Virus record (IMG/VR): IMGVR_UViG_3300020580_000001 | Coordinates: 1-64,000 of that record | Length of the DNA: 64,000 nucleotides | Strand: one strand, 5' to 3' | Source of the DNA: a virus | Shown here: piece by piece, positions 1-5,259 of the stretch | Numbering within the stretch: the first letter of the stretch is position 1 | How the letters are laid out: every line of letters begins with the position of its first letter | Notes under the pieces: model-generated | Database searches by the model: none | What the model was told of the DNA's origin: nothing | The model's input: the letters and a program-made list of their open reading frames with translations, nothing else | Translations under genes and position numbers: made by a program

Positions 1-338
1 ACCTTCCAATTGCCAAGATTAATTAACTCGACGGTTAGCCATCCTTCCCAGCCTGGATCAAGATGAGTGTTCATCGCAGATATACCGCACCGCGCAAGGC
101 TTGATTTATCAAGTACGGAACCACAGATATTTGCCGGTAAGCAAAATCTTTCGACAGTGCTGACTAGCTCAGATTTTCCTACATCTATGATGCAATGCTG
201 AGCAATTCTGCAATCATAAGTGCATGCAGAAAGACCATATGATCGTCCACTAGCAACACCGCGCTCGACAAATGGTGTAATTAAAGGCCGATTGCTTTGG
301 CATAATTGGCGAATGGATTGGGCGGAAAGAACGGTCAT
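1..338 (-). CDS. dcd: dCTP deaminase (3' end runs off the window)
   Basis: Hand translation from ATG at 338: MTVLSAQSIRQL...GLSACTYDCRI...GSVLDKSSLARCGI...HLDPGWEGWLTVELIN; matches the dCTP deaminase motifs KSSxAR and DPGxxGxLTxE; ATGA overlap with upstream ORF. Confidence 0.85.
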   Translation of the reverse strand, partial: MTVLSAQSIRQLCQSNRPLITPFVERGVASGRSYGLSACTYDCRIAQHCIIDVGKSELVSTVERFCLPANICGSVLDKSSLARCGISAMNTHLDPGWEGWLTVELINLGNWK

Positions 339-547
339 GATGCGCGCTTCGCTTCCATGCGCTTCATCGCTTCGCGCATCCATTTCAGCCTGCGATAGAC
401 ACGCTCGAAACTTTCCGCCTTGTGGCGCATTCCCAAATAGGAATTTCCATATTGAGCACGATACCATCCTGCAGCTTCGAAATAATCCTCTGGCTTTGGA
501 TTGTGAATTGGTTTAGAATGCTGTGGAAATCTCGCTTCAAAAAACAT
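335..547 (-). CDS. hypothetical protein
   Basis: ORF track; stop overlaps the dcd start (ATGA). Confidence 0.5.
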   Translation of the reverse strand: MFFEARFPQHSKPIHNPKPEDYFEAAGWYRAQYGNSYLGMRHKAESFERVYRRLKWMREAMKRMEAKRAS

Positions 548-731
548 TATCCCATCCTTGCAAATAATATTTTGTCGTTGCCAATTCCAGCCTGGAAATG
601 GCCCGCGTCAAGAACCACAAATTGCTTGCCAAGTTCATCATGTAGCATTCACAAGTTGGATCGCGCGCCCAAACTACGCGGCCATAAAAATCCATTTTGT
701 AATATCCAGATATATCAATGTAATTGCTCAT
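537..731 (-). CDS. hypothetical protein
   Basis: ATG at 731 overlaps the stop of the upstream ORF; operon packing. Confidence 0.45.
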   Translation of the reverse strand: MSNYIDISGYYKMDFYGRVVWARDPTCECYMMNLASNLWFLTRAISRLELATTKYYLQGWDNVF

Positions 732-985
732 TTCATCGGTTCCTGCGGCTCTCCATCTCCAGCCCATATCATAAGTACTGACCAGTAGCCATGATGTCCT
801 TCAAGCACGGCCGTGGATAACCAACCAATTGCTTCATACGAAGCTCGGCGGGAATGCGGAACATAGCGATAATATGTTACATCTTCGACAGGCGTAACAG
901 CAGCTTCAATTGCTGATGTTCTAGCTGGCTTGGCGGTCATTAGGCGGCCCCGTAAACTGCCGTACTGGCGATGAAGCATTTTCAC
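728..985 (-). CDS. hypothetical protein
   Basis: ORF track; coupled to the methyltransferase stop. Confidence 0.5.
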   Translation of the reverse strand: MKMLHRQYGSLRGRLMTAKPARTSAIEAAVTPVEDVTYYRYVPHSRRASYEAIGWLSTAVLEGHHGYWSVLMIWAGDGEPQEPMK

Positions 986-3114
986 ACTCCACCAAACAAA
1001 GGTAGAGAATTGACGGACTCAGCTTGACCTCTCTTTTTTATAGATTCCCGCCGTCTTTCGTCAGGTCCGCTCATAACTAAAGAAAGCCTTTTCTCAATAT
1101 CACTAACGTACTCTAATTCTTTTTCGATAAGTATGGAATTGAAGCCCTCACGAAATGCGGCTTCGCCAAGTGTTCCGGTGCCGGCAAACAAATCGAGGCA
1201 AGTTCCGTTTTTGGGAGTGATAAGGCGGACTAAATATTGTATAAGATCAAGTGGCTTTATTGTTGGATGGCGTGATCCGAGCCTATCATCCGCGCCAGCT
1301 TTCGACGTGTAAAATATGCGCTGCACATCTTCTTGCGGAAAGCTCGCAAAGAAGTGCGCGGCAGAGCCGGAGTCGCTAAATCCGCCAAGCTTATCTTCAT
1401 AATGTTCGTGTGCCGGTCTCCTCCATCCATCATTAACATTTCCTGACGTCATCCCTCGCGAATATGATGGAGGCTTTACACCAGCCGTCGGCCCGCTCTC
1501 CGGAAAGCACGCCAAGACTTCCTCGCTGCCATCGTGAAGAAGGTTGGCCGGCCAGCGGGCGTGCGGTCCTTGATTAAAATCAGTGGTTCCAGTAAATGAG
1601 CCTACTGTAGATCCAGATCCACGATGTAACCCGGCAGCCTGATGATCAATATTTACACCAACGCGGCACGCCCCTACATTTATCGCGCCAGTGCCCCACT
1701 TCAACACATTCTGCGCAATGCTTTTCTCGGATATTGGCTTACGAGCTAGACAAATCGGCTCATGTGCAGGCTTTAGAGCCGTGCCAAGACCCTCGGGAAT
1801 AATCGGTTTGCCACACCGGCCACAAATCGGCCAGCTTCCCCGCGCTTGTGATCCGAATTCGTCGGATAAAGAGTCAGATTGCTCGGATGGTTGTTCGCCG
1901 GATTGTGGTCCTCGTGGTTGACGACTTCCGTTCTCATAAGAAGGAATCCGCACATCTGAGCCATCACCAATCGATGCTCCATGATGTAGCGATCCTTCCG
2001 TGCCATTTCGAGCGCCCATGTCGGCGCCTTCACATAGCGGACTCCGTTGTAATTCCCGTGCGGCCTCTTGAGCGTCACGCCACCCTTCCACGCAGGATTC
2101 CGTTCCATCGCCATTCCCTTGCCGGGACGTTTCTTGCCCTTTCCATTCGCCGCGAACGGCACTAGTCGAGCAGCATGCGCCTTCGCTCGACATGACCGGC
2201 TGCAATAATTGTTCTTGACCTTCCTTATCCACGCCAGAGGAATTGTCTTCTCCGTTCCACAAACTGGGCAAGCAACCGTCTGTTTCTGGTTGCGTGGCGA
2301 TGGAATTCCAGTCTTGCGAATTGATATGAGTTTGTTCGCGCATGCCCTCGAACAAGTTTTCTCTCTCGCTCCATGTTTGTGCGTCTTCGGTTCCCACACT
2401 TTCCCGCAAACTGCGCAAGTTCGTATCTTTCGCTTCGCCATTCCGAAGCATGTCCGGCTGCAATATGGCCCGCGCAACGCCGGTGACCTGTAAGGAAGAG
2501 GCAAGCGGCAATGCGCACAAACACCTGTCGATGCAAGTATTGATGTTTTTACTTTTGGGGAATCCAACCCCAAACTGCCAAGAAAGTCGCCCCGTGCCGC
2601 GTTCTCGAAAAAGCTTTCCAAACTGTCTGCGTTGCTCATCACTTAAGCTTTCCTCGAAAACGCGATATTCAGTTTCCGAATCCTTATCTAATAAGATCTC
2701 ATCTCTGATCTCAAATCCAGCATCTTCTATCGCGCATACCATTCTATGCGCCGTGCGGGTACCCCCAAATATTATCGCATAACCGCCTGGCTTGAGCACG
2801 CGCAGCACTTCTGCCCATAGTTCCGGCTGGAATGCAATGTTACCACCATCCCATTGCTTGCCCATGAAACCAGCCGCAGCACGCTTATATGGACTCACAG
2901 TACCGCCACCACCTTTATTTGACGGCAATTGTAAATTGAATTCGTCTCGTTCCAAGTTGCTCTTACCAAAGCGCTTCACAATCGACGTCAGGTGATACGG
3001 CGGGTCTGTTACGACGCTATCAACGCTATTATCTGCAAGCCCTTTGAGCACATCCCGGCAATCGCCAGCATGCAGCGTCACGCGCCCATTGAGGAATGAT
3101 CGCGGCTCGCTCAT
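982..3114 (-). CDS. DNA N4-cytosine/N6-adenine methyltransferase (beta class) with ~250-aa insertion
   Basis: GDC, VTDPPY (motif IV), RVLKPGG, HPTIKP and LDLFAGTGT (motif I) in beta order; long low-complexity insertion between GFPKS and GTALKPAHEPI. Confidence 0.92.
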   Translation of the reverse strand: MSEPRSFLNGRVTLHAGDCRDVLKGLADNSVDSVVTDPPYHLTSIVKRFGKSNLERDEFNLQLPSNKGGGGTVSPYKRAAAGFMGKQWDGGNIAFQPELWAEVLRVLKPGGYAIIFGGTRTAHRMVCAIEDAGFEIRDEILLDKDSETEYRVFEESLSDEQRRQFGKLFRERGTGRLSWQFGVGFPKSKNINTCIDRCLCALPLASSLQVTGVARAILQPDMLRNGEAKDTNLRSLRESVGTEDAQTWSERENLFEGMREQTHINSQDWNSIATQPETDGCLPSLWNGEDNSSGVDKEGQEQLLQPVMSSEGACCSTSAVRGEWKGQETSRQGNGDGTESCVEGWRDAQEAARELQRSPLCEGADMGARNGTEGSLHHGASIGDGSDVRIPSYENGSRQPRGPQSGEQPSEQSDSLSDEFGSQARGSWPICGRCGKPIIPEGLGTALKPAHEPICLARKPISEKSIAQNVLKWGTGAINVGACRVGVNIDHQAAGLHRGSGSTVGSFTGTTDFNQGPHARWPANLLHDGSEEVLACFPESGPTAGVKPPSYSRGMTSGNVNDGWRRPAHEHYEDKLGGFSDSGSAAHFFASFPQEDVQRIFYTSKAGADDRLGSRHPTIKPLDLIQYLVRLITPKNGTCLDLFAGTGTLGEAAFREGFNSILIEKELEYVSDIEKRLSLVMSGPDERRRESIKKRGQAESVNSLPLFGGV
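1773..2642 (-). CDS. HNH homing endonuclease with Zn-finger repeats, nested in an alternate frame of the methyltransferase
   Basis: Three CxxC...CSxxC repeats, NPAWKGG, YIMEHRLVM...VVNHEDHNPANNHPSNL HNH motif; GAGGA lies 8 nt before the GTG at 2642. Confidence 0.85.
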   Translation of the reverse strand: MMSNADSLESFFENAARGDFLGSLGLDSPKVKTSILASTGVCAHCRLPLPYRSPALRGPYCSRTCFGMAKRKIRTCAVCGKVWEPKTHKHGAREKTCSRACANKLISIRKTGIPSPRNQKQTVACPVCGTEKTIPLAWIRKVKNNYCSRSCRAKAHAARLVPFAANGKGKKRPGKGMAMERNPAWKGGVTLKRPHGNYNGVRYVKAPTWALEMARKDRYIMEHRLVMAQMCGFLLMRTEVVNHEDHNPANNHPSNLTLYPTNSDHKRGEAGRFVAGVANRLFPRVLARL

Positions 3115-3305
3115 TCCAGCACAGCTTTCTTAATAATGTGGATTTCCGTCTTCATGTTTGCGAAATTGCGCGTGTCCACCTCGACGCCACAAATCCGCTT
3201 TCCAAGCGCTATTCCAAGCTGCTCATCTAAAGTCAATAATAGTAGCTGAATCTTATTTTCCACAACAGCAAGCAGAGCTTGTTCATGTGGTAGCAAATCG
3301 CTCAT
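3111..3305 (-). CDS. hypothetical protein
   Basis: ATGA-coupled on both sides. Confidence 0.55.
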   Translation of the reverse strand: MSDLLPHEQALLAVVENKIQLLLLTLDEQLGIALGKRICGVEVDTRNFANMKTEIHIIKKAVLE

Positions 3306-3508
3306 TTCAGCATCTCGTCGATCATTGATTGCCAAGAGCACAGCACTCCGCCACTGCTCGTTTTTATCCCGGCTAACAGAACATCTTCTGGCGGCTCGCG
3401 CGTGGCGGCAATCGCAGCACGGGCAATTTGTGCTAAATATGCATCCGGATTTGCGCCAGGCAAATTCCGATCAATCGCCTTCGCGACGCGATCTACCATT
3501 TCGCTCAT
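3302..3508 (-). CDS. small phage hypothetical protein (MSEMVDRVAKAI...)
   Basis: Typical small phage protein pattern (RVAKAI...ARAAIAA.REP); coupled stop. Confidence 0.6.
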   Translation of the reverse strand: MSEMVDRVAKAIDRNLPGANPDAYLAQIARAAIAATREPPEDVLLAGIKTSSGGVLCSWQSMIDEMLK

Positions 3509-3580
3509 GATTAAATCCAATGTGCTAGCGTCACGCCGATCAAGGCTCCTATGAGGCCTGCTAACCATCCTTGCCAATAA

Positions 3581-4264
3581 TCACTCATGATTCAGCATCC
3601 CGCGCAGGATTGCGATGTCATCGGCAAGCGTCTTGTCAGTTTCAATCAACTTAATTATTCTTTGTATTGAATGGAGGACCGTCGTATGATCGCGGTTAAA
3701 CCGACGACCTATTTCCGCCATTGTGTTATTCGTCAATTCTTTCGATAGAAAGATAGCTATGTGGCGCGGACGTGCCATACGAGCATAATGTCTAACACAA
3801 ACAATGTCGGCCACGCACAAATTGAAATATCTTGCTGTCACGGCTTGAATGCGTGCGATTGTAGGCTTATCGGATTGTACTTCCGGCTGATAATCAAAGG
3901 GCTGCGCCCGTGTTTGTTCGCTGAAATCGCCGAAATAGTCTGCGCTTTCACGAATACATTCTATAATGTACTTTGTGAGTAAAATTGGGAGGTTGAGATT
4001 ACGCGCTTCTTCCACGCGTTCTTCGACGGACTTGATATTTTGTTGTGGTAATGGCGGGAATGCAGGCGCATGTTTCGGCTCTAGTTCTAGTCCTGGCTGT
4101 GGCTGTGGCACTGGCCGAGTATTAAGTCGTTTCCATATTTGATCGCGCCTTGCTATTAATTCGTCTAAATATGCCGAGCCGGTATGATGTTTGGATCGTA
4201 CCGCGTTAAATGCACCCATATTGGCATGCCTAATTCTGACATAATCGATTGGAGAGTCGGTCAT
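3581..4264 (-). CDS. DnaA C-terminal-like HTH DNA-binding protein
   Basis: ARPRHIAIFLSKELT...IGRRFNRDHTTVLHS is the DnaA domain IV signature; AGGA before ATG 4264. Confidence 0.85.
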   Translation of the reverse strand: MTDSPIDYVRIRHANMGAFNAVRSKHHTGSAYLDELIARRDQIWKRLNTRPVPQPQPGLELEPKHAPAFPPLPQQNIKSVEERVEEARNLNLPILLTKYIIECIRESADYFGDFSEQTRAQPFDYQPEVQSDKPTIARIQAVTARYFNLCVADIVCVRHYARMARPRHIAIFLSKELTNNTMAEIGRRFNRDHTTVLHSIQRIIKLIETDKTLADDIAILRGMLNHE

Positions 4265-4268
4265 TGTC

Positions 4269-4688
4269 CTACGCCGATTTGCGACGCCCATTCCACCACG
4301 CCCGCAAAGCGCGCGCATGCTTACCCAGCGATTCCGAGGCGAGAAGAAATCGCTCTTCGTTGTAATCAACATCATCATCCGTCATGTTCTCTCGGAGAAC
4401 ATAAGAGCGCTCAACACCCTTCACTGGCCGGATTGGATATCTCCATTGCAGCTCAGTAAATAGCTCGAATTGAACATTATCGTCATCCGTAGCCTCGAAT
4501 TTCTTTCGAAGACGGCTCATGGCATATTGCTTCGCATGTTCCACACATCCAGCATAAACGCACGGAACAGAAAGCCTATCAGGATCGACAATTTTCATGG
4601 CTTCATTGGCAACCCATGGCGCATTGATATGCGTCTCATCACGCCTATTCTCAATTATATTGTCAATAATTGCATATAGCTCACTCAT
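4269..4688 (-). CDS. hypothetical protein
   Basis: ORF track; operon packing. Confidence 0.65.
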   Translation of the reverse strand: MSELYAIIDNIIENRRDETHINAPWVANEAMKIVDPDRLSVPCVYAGCVEHAKQYAMSRLRKKFEATDDDNVQFELFTELQWRYPIRPVKGVERSYVLRENMTDDDVDYNEERFLLASESLGKHARALRAWWNGRRKSA

Positions 4689-5259
4689 ATACAAGTTCCT
4701 TTATTGTAGAGAGCCAGCCAGCAGCGAGCGGCGCAATACGCATGACATCTTCAATCATTGTTTCGGTCATTGTAGACATGAAGAATTCAGGCGATTGCTT
4801 AAGCCAGCGACGCTCGAAATCGCGCATCATCCCGTAGAGCAACAGCGCATCGCCATCAACTGAAGACGGCTTGACAATTAGTTCGCTGACTGATTTAGTA
4901 GCTAGCGCTGTTTCGAATTGATCTTCTGGAACTTCTGAAAGCCTCTCCCATTCGGAAGCTTGCTGATGCTCTATCCCGGCATCTTCGAGTACTTTTGACT
5001 TCTGCGGACGATCCGCAGAAGTTCGGAGATCGTTTCTCTGTCCTTGCGCCTTCTCTATCTTTTTCGATAGAGCGCCAGCTTTGCGCGCCGCCCGCATTCG
5101 GATTTCATAGGCGCGCGTTTCCGCTTCGACGTTCTTGGCTACCCGCGCGGCCGCTTGCAGCATTTGCGCTTGATCATGAATGGCCTTCACTTCGTCGACC
5201 GCATAGGCGGCATCGATCGCACGGCACATAGCATCATAGCGGACGAGTTCAGCGGTCAT
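4681..5259 (-). CDS. hypothetical helical phage protein (possible HTH)
   Basis: 192-aa ORF with protein-like composition. Confidence 0.65.
   Translation of the reverse strand: MTAELVRYDAMCRAIDAAYAVDEVKAIHDQAQMLQAAARVAKNVEAETRAYEIRMRAARKAGALSKKIEKAQGQRNDLRTSADRPQKSKVLEDAGIEHQQASEWERLSEVPEDQFETALATKSVSELIVKPSSVDGDALLLYGMMRDFERRWLKQSPEFFMSTMTETMIEDVMRIAPLAAGWLSTIKELVYE

Follow-up and report, generated by a model that had tools for sequence, protein, structure and literature searches.

A putative HNH homing gene read out of frame inside a phage DNA methyltransferase gene whose own frame is kept free of stops

Homing endonucleases usually travel as passengers of introns and inteins. How can a nuclease gene of this kind be accommodated within another coding gene when neither an intron nor an intein is recognizable? 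The question is raised by a locus of a soil phage, IMG/VR virus record IMGVR_UViG_3300020580_000001, of which the first 64,000 nucleotides (nt) were analyzed and are referred to in the following as the window. The source record comprises 82.8 kb and has direct terminal repeats and therefore represents a complete uncultivated phage. On the minus strand of the window, an open reading frame (ORF) at 982..3114 encodes a DNA methyltransferase (methylase) of 710 amino acids (aa). An earlier reading of the sequence alone had noted that a second ORF, for a nuclease of the HNH type, lies wholly inside the methylase gene on the same strand but in another frame, with both frames open. This arrangement is confirmed: the maximal HNH-frame ORF (1773..2642, minus strand, 289 codons) begins 472 nt downstream of the methylase start, that is, in the +1 frame of the ORF 982..3114, and the host frame runs through it without a stop. 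Judging from sequence comparisons, we regard it as quite likely that a selfish HNH gene is dual-coded in a linker of the methylase and that the 710-aa methylase is read straight through, with the insert forming a disordered loop.

An open methylase frame across the nuclease gene

In the methylase frame, the insert occupies 1795..2550 (minus strand) and corresponds to a loop of about 252 aa (residues 189-440) that is absent from insert-free homologues and comprises a whole number of codons. No stop interrupts the methylase frame from the motif GFPKS upstream of the insert to the motif GTALKP downstream of it. As a control, the synonymous codons of the HNH ORF were shuffled while the HNH protein and its codon usage were held fixed. 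The shuffled sequences contained on average 13.3 stops in the methylase frame, and not one of 20,000 was open, whereas the third sense frame of the natural sequence behaved normally in the same control (10 stops compared to 8.8 expected). A host-frame stop arises only when an HNH codon ending in T is followed by a codon starting with AA, AG or GA, and none of the 72 at-risk HNH codons in the window ends in T, compared to 58 of 216 other codons. Since no shuffle was open and 13.3 stops were to be expected, the methylase frame is kept stop-free by selection and not by chance. The sequence-only reading had put the chance of an open frame at a naive 1e-5; it was right in calling the frame non-random, but the figure itself is superseded by the shuffle control.

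The same picture emerged from the relatives of the element, which were collected by a search with an alignment of HNH sequences, matches being confirmed by tblastn, such that the survey was independent of the gene calling of either ORF. The loci recovered were 6 from viruses, 80 from metagenomes and 16 from genomes or metagenome-assembled genomes (MAGs); the relatives are spread over many phyla, with Cupriavidus, Polaromonas and Solirubrobacterales among the sources of the genomic loci. The HNH gene separates the two methylase halves in 52 non-duplicate loci that have both of them; it shares their strand, its frame is +1 without exception, and the host frame is open throughout. When the window is included, synonymous shuffles predict 454 host-frame stops for these 53 loci, and none is present; for no single locus does the chance of an open frame exceed 0.02. 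Another 21 loci with only one methylase flank are likewise open across the HNH gene. The depletion of stops across homologous inserts, proposed earlier as a check, is thus borne out, and the dual-coding interpretation is supported at the sequence level by the window together with its 52 relatives. Frequent methylase-frame stops in homologous inserts had been set beforehand as an outcome that speaks against it; such stops were seen only in a broken copy (L098) and in a free-standing one (L088). The latter is a natural negative control, a free-standing copy without stop avoidance: an HNH gene for 154 aa (2492-2956) is located directly upstream of an insert-free methylase gene with a short linker (2956-3597), and its other two sense frames contain 5 and 13 stops. 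One further locus (L057) has a stop in the N-terminal methylase half, and four (L042 and L052-L054) are frameshifted at sites outside the insert. In L052, L053 and L054, all from one study, the frameshift is common to the three and lies exactly between GSG and FPKS (near L052:1900), which places the N-terminal half off-frame from the loop and the C-terminal half; the genes may be truly split, use a programmed shift or be decaying.

The protein that harbors the insert matches PF01555 (N6_N4_Mtase) with 88.8 bits (6.7e-25) at a cut-off of 26.7 and also matches phrog_67 (1e-52). Motif IV (DPPY, residues 37-40) lies close to the N-terminus, motif I (FAGTGT, near residues 643-648) toward the C-terminus, and both are conserved in the alignments. 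Because motif IV precedes motif I and the PF01555 match lies above the cut-off, the ORF is classified on sequence grounds as a beta-class N6/N4 DNA methyltransferase. Its N-terminal half (2551..3114, minus strand, residues 1-188) ends with GFPKS (residues 184-188), and its C-terminal half (985..1794, minus strand, residues 441-710) contains GTALKP (residues 444-449) as well as motif I. The linker between GFPKS and GTALKP measures 306 aa in the window compared to 21-154 aa in insert-free homologues, such as that of Caulobacter phage DMCA and many proteins of 390-500 aa from metagenomes. Alignment to homologues with and without the insert, another check suggested at the outset, showed that the insert is missing from the insert-free proteins and that the linker site is variable, in agreement with the earlier claim that the insert is tolerated in a variable region. 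In an AlphaFold2 (AF2) model of the 710-aa protein, the predicted local distance difference test (pLDDT) score is 31-38 for the loop compared to 84-98 for the methylase core (84-98 in the N-terminal and 86-93 in the C-terminal half), and the loop is accordingly predicted to be disordered. The sequence-only reading had described a low-complexity loop of about 250 aa. Its size and its position between GFPKS and GTALKP were correct; it is not simply of low complexity but the out-of-frame reading of a conserved HNH gene, with cysteines at both ends. A segment of 35 aa preceding GFPKS also occurs in five insert-free proteins (P0039, P0078, P0080, P0058 and P0083) and is, by this comparison, native to one methylase subfamily. 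It was considered as a target duplication and rejected as such, being native methylase sequence; a degenerate GSGFPKS-like stretch in L008 was rejected in the same way as native or element sequence.

The inner HNH gene and its probable mobility

The inner ORF matches 13 HNH families of the PHROG collection (best 2.7e-12). High-confidence structure prediction (pLDDT 90-97) was obtained for ORF residues 70-165, which contain two zinc ribbons of the type CxxC...CSRxC, and for residues 200-270 with the HNH core; the nuclease core as a feature occupies 1833..2054 (minus strand, residues ~197-270, pLDDT 92-96). Across 45 HNH sequences, H223, N251, the stretch N182-G188 (NPAWKGG) and the zinc-ribbon cysteines are invariant, and H243, H246, N255 and H265 are conserved in at least 90%; the catalytic His...Asn...His residues are thereby invariant or nearly so. 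When the predicted core was compared with known structures by VIA-align, I-HmuI was the best match (Z 4.8, root-mean-square deviation 3.9, 66 residues aligned), followed by other HNH enzymes at Z 2.8-2.9. With Foldseek, no PDB entry matched the HNH model at E<=0.001, zinc-finger entries dominating the list, and a profile search of solved structures with the HNH protein returned only weak zinc-finger matches. The predicted model suggests, with modest structural support, that the inner ORF is an HNH nuclease gene with an I-HmuI-like core.

The 289-codon ORF proposed earlier is present as an open frame, but it probably exceeds the real gene. Its first ~67 codons overlap native methylase sequence including GFPKS, and the corresponding residues are modeled with a pLDDT of only 42-56, values above 90 being reached only from residue ~70 on. 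The stretch following M68, MAKRKIRTCAVCG, agrees with the N-termini of relatives (L006 and L027), and in many relatives an HNH-frame stop stands immediately 5' of the ATG (TAG-ATG or TAA-ATG). The HNH protein thus probably starts at ATG 2441 and has 222 aa (1773..2441, minus strand), comprising both zinc ribbons and the HNH core. The start of the maximal ORF, GTG 2642, is preceded by a Shine-Dalgarno-like GAGGA (2651-2655) at a spacing of 8 nt; it is possibly used, with a lower likelihood than ATG 2441. A promoter and terminator scan of the region 900-3400 found sites no more often than in shuffled sequences and none near the HNH start. At the other end, as read from the sequence, the HNH stop codon TAA (1773..1775, minus strand) arises out of frame from the methylase codons for Leu and Lys (cTA Aag) in the invariant motif GTALKP.

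Which of the two products is constrained within the insert can be read from the pattern of substitutions. Related loci differ mostly at position 3 of the HNH codons, which is host position 1, and host position 3, equivalent to HNH position 2, changes least. For the pair L055/L059, the differences per HNH position 1, 2 and 3 amount to 0.03, 0.02 and 0.21 at 95% amino-acid identity. From this distribution, it is the HNH protein that is under purifying selection over most of the insert, as judged by sequence. Differences in the flanking methylase sequence are also biased to position 3, as under purifying selection.

Evidence for movement came from a comparison of the insert with its surroundings. 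In amino-acid identity, the HNH protein often exceeds the flanking methylase by a wide margin (95% vs 53%, 87% vs 64% and 80% vs 58%), and sliding-window nucleotide identity revealed blocks of 85-100% that consist of the insert plus ~200 nt on the 5' side and ~90 nt on the 3' side, beyond which identity drops to 35-50%. Such blocks suggest homing with co-conversion or recombination within the gene. On a FastTree phylogeny of 100 methylase cores from which the linker had been removed, the presence of the insert requires 20 changes, at least 11 of them forced by well-supported branches; shuffled labels required 33 changes on average, and none of 500 shuffles got down to the observed number. The window groups with the insert-bearing P0002, P0003 and P0005, and its next neighbor is the insert-free P0105. 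By this tree, the insert is patchily distributed, and the patchiness, taken together with insert and short flanks shared at 85-100% nucleotide identity, suggests a mobile homing element.

Cysteine pairs, intein carriers and the weighing of explanations

In 15 of the relatives (L024, L039, L041, L046, L049, L050, L070, L071, L075, L077, L081, L083, L097, L104 and L105), the same +1 HNH gene resides inside a canonical intein inserted between G and S of GSGFPKS. The intein frame is open, and the splicing blocks are readily apparent (CLSxDTE..., TDQIVSRNHR and ...GAFVARRNGKxFxTGN followed by S). What sets the plain carriers apart is a pair of cysteine motifs in the host frame, a CxC just after GFPKS and a CxxC shortly before GTALKP. 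In the window, the former consists of C198 and C200 with C194 nearby (2515..2535, minus strand), and the latter of C431 and C434 in WPICGRCGKP, 13 residues before GTALKP (1813..1824, minus strand). Both motifs occur at the same positions in 30 of 38 plain carriers and in none of the 15 intein carriers; among the top 120 homologues, they are found in all of the about 54-60 methylases with long linkers and in no insert-free one. Only ~8% of synonymous recodings of the HNH gene preserve the CxC half and only ~12% the CxxC half. For this reason the cysteine pairs, judged from recoding, are under host-frame selection and are no by-product of the HNH protein. The residues encoded by these codons in the HNH frame vary (F/I/D and G/F/Y), and the wobble T that creates the host cysteine is retained. 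In the HNH frame, the clasp codons are read as a tail, GRFVxGVANR, which is modeled with low pLDDT in the window; in L088, the free-standing protein stops directly behind the HK..E motif and lacks this tail. A telling case is P0043, a methylase of 485 aa from which the HNH-coding middle has been deleted, leaving a 97-aa linker that has kept both CxC and CxxC, a 'mini' element analogous to a mini-intein. In the AF2 model of the 710-aa protein, small rises in confidence are seen at residues 196-202 and 431-440, up to 64 near the CxxC.

On the basis of this conservation, the two cysteine pairs probably bind zinc and pin the ends of the loop together. A more far-reaching idea, which we put forward only tentatively and with some doubt, is that CxC...CxxC is an element-borne zinc staple that would hold the methylase halves together while the loop bulges out, as a structural substitute for splicing. 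The same +1 HNH cassette would then exist in two mutually exclusive carriers, the intein, which cuts the loop out, and the clasp, which ties it off. If this were true, it would constitute a distinct mechanism, beside introns and inteins, for keeping a homing gene inside a coding gene.

Taken as a whole, dual coding could work as follows. A selfish HNH homing gene would have settled, on the same strand and in the +1 frame, in the dispensable GFPKS-GTALKP linker of a phage methylase, and its synonymous sites would be chosen such that the methylase frame meets no stop. As the frame is free of stops, the methylase would be translated straight through as one 710-aa protein from which the insert is extruded as a disordered loop of ~250 aa, with CxC and CxxC binding zinc and tying its ends together, so that neither RNA nor protein splicing would be needed. 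The HNH protein would arise independently from an internal start, ATG 2441 being the most likely one and GTG 2642 with its GAGGA a possible one, and would presumably cut insert-free methylase alleles of co-infecting phages, whose repair would copy the element in. That both products are translated, that zinc is bound, that the methylase is active and that the HNH protein cleaves DNA and homes are inferences from the sequences. Several points weigh against this reading. The match of the inner ORF to HNH_3 is weak (19.5 bits, below the Pfam cut-off of 24.8), and the structural match to I-HmuI is modest at its Z score of 4.8. The HNH start codon is uncertain, ATG 2441 having a weak Shine-Dalgarno sequence. 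Eight plain carriers lack the CxC, which means that the clasp is not obligatory. The evidence for mobility covers the family and not the copy in the window, and the FastTree phylogeny was built on a gene known to recombine internally.

Could the insert be removed after all, by an unrecognized self-splicing RNA or an unconventional protein excision, so that the open frame is needed only until excision? The 15 relatives with bona fide inteins, in which the open frame serves protein splicing of the same +1 HNH cassette, provide a precedent, and models often fail to detect group I introns of phages. Yet an intron would exert no selection to keep the host frame open, and the HNH ORF fills the whole insert and leaves no room for a ribozyme core. 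Rfam gave no intron match at E<=1 in positions 1-5000 of the window, although divergent introns can escape its models. A profile search of the window proteins found no intein family, and the loop, which starts with KNIN... and ends with ...KPIIP before EGLG, has neither Cys/Ser as its first residue nor a terminal HN/N followed by Ser/Thr/Cys. The earlier statement that no intron or intein is involved agrees with these results for the window, and we consider removal very unlikely. We give even less credit to a dead methylase whose frame is kept open for other reasons, or to an HNH protein fused to the N-terminal methylase half by +1 ribosomal frameshifting. Such scenarios would fit the invariable +1 position of the HNH gene and the frameshifts near GFPKS in a few relatives (L042, L052-L054), but common descent accounts for the constant frame, the catalytic DPPY is intact, as is motif I, the position-3 bias of the flanks indicates purifying selection, and the HNH-frame stop just before the ATG in many relatives fits separate initiation.

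A domesticated HNH protein that acts as a partner of the methylase, the two forming a compact pair of the restriction-modification or addiction kind in which methylation restrains the nuclease, is also unlikely in our view. Strong purifying selection on the HNH protein and the association of ~95 of 96 HNH loci with the same methylase family would fit such a pair. Against this stand the patchy occurrence of the insert (at least 11-20 changes on the tree), the fact that most methylases of the family do without it, and the existence of the mini form P0043 without HNH. The mosaic blocks of high identity, moreover, resemble co-conversion tracts, and a free-standing copy adjoining an insert-free methylase, as in L088, is typical of homing genes.

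Known systems and the surrounding locus

Free-standing homing genes inside a conserved phage gene, without intron or intein, are known for example from Aeromonas phage Aeh1, where mobE cuts the nrdA gene into two ORFs whose products reassemble. Unlike in that case, the host ORF in the window stays whole.

The closest published layout is that of the 'ShiLan domain' described in mycobacteriophage DNA methylases (Gosselin et al. 2023, PMC9957025), which was later recognized as a hidden out-of-frame HNH gene and proposed to be a tolerated loop (Arsenault, Gosselin & Gogarten 2025, PMC11855218). The idea of a dual-coding HNH gene is therefore not new; the 2025 proposal of a splicing-free route was made for ~10 mycobacteriophage genes without statistics (PMC11855218), and the ShiLan and the window cases are both computational. 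They share a same-strand out-of-frame HNH gene in an insertion of a PF01555 phage methylase, a stop-free host frame, the lack of a detectable intron or intein and a patchy distribution. They differ in the insertion site, which lies between GFPKS and GTALKP in the window and after GTALKPxxEPxxxARKP in ShiLan, and in the frame of the HNH gene, which is +1 in the window and the 'third frame' (+2) in ShiLan. The HNH_3-like nuclease of the window is 24.5% identical to the HNH region of the ShiLan element of Mycobacterium phage Mantra. The host-frame CxC...CxxC of the window family is not mentioned in the ShiLan paper PMC11855218. ShiLan stems from mycobacteriophages, the window from a soil phage with ~50% guanine-plus-cytosine (GC) content and relatives in many phyla, and the shuffle statistics and the survey of ~100 loci pertain to the window family. 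Thus, the window element has the layout of a hidden out-of-frame HNH insertion, but it does not belong to the ShiLan sequence family because site and frame differ. We confirmed the ShiLan arrangement in Mantra gp64 (L001:1500-3824), where a +2 HNH gene is flanked by duplicated EPxVVARKP; this protein also has an in-frame LAGLIDADG insertion after DPPY. One of the intein carriers, L070, in which the gap between the methylase halves measures 1924 nt, contains a second long open insertion after GTALKPSHEPVIWASKRL, which is the ShiLan site.

Inteins with a homing endonuclease in another frame have been described as well (bioRxiv 10.1101/2025.01.02.630785). As in the window, the insert is read through in the host frame and the nuclease is encoded in a second one, but that case concerns an endonuclease VII-like gene in other host proteins, whereas the window has an HNH gene in a methylase and lacks intein splicing blocks. 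Nearer to the window is gp70 of Mycobacterium phage SG4 (NC_023699, L002:1477-3255), annotated as 'methyltransferase' and not named in the text of the ShiLan papers (PMC9957025, PMC11855218), which agrees in the site (GFPKS...GTALKP), the +1 frame and CxC...CxxC. Its nuclease shares only the CxxC...YCSRxC zinc ribbon with that of the window (E 4e-5) and has a classical HNH core in a GC-rich actinophage, in contrast to the HNH_3-like core of the window. In Escherichia phage BUCT618 (L004:1510-3372), the gene annotated as a methyltransferase of 620 aa harbors an HNH ORF of 201 aa (1923..2528), whose frame is +2 and across which the host frame stays open. This element is flanked by SKQID / SKAID repeats, has no cysteine clasp and belongs to a different family, in a tractable host.

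With ~100 loci in soils, waters, prophages and MAGs, the window family is a new, large and well-supported variant that is larger, older and more widespread than ShiLan. It lends the dual-coding idea of 2025 quantitative support and ties together the loop and intein settings of one and the same nuclease, and its putative cysteine clasp points to a concrete adaptation that is open to mutation. Behind many long genes annotated as 'DNA methylase' there is an uncalled nuclease gene, and permissive clasped loop sites could serve protein engineering.

Searches for near-identical DNA with the 2.1-kb gene in phage and E. coli collections gave no match, and a search of sequencing runs returned two soil metagenome DNA runs, one of them probably the source, and no RNA run. 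Within the methylase itself, residues 485-603 (window 1309-1659) form a second variable region with pLDDT <50 and widely varying length among homologues. The methylase gene is flanked by a dCTP-deaminase-like ORF (PF22769; 3-467, minus strand) and a gene for a protein with a DnaA C-terminal helix-turn-helix domain (PF08299; 3581-4378, minus strand), which suggests a replication or nucleotide-metabolism module around the methylase.

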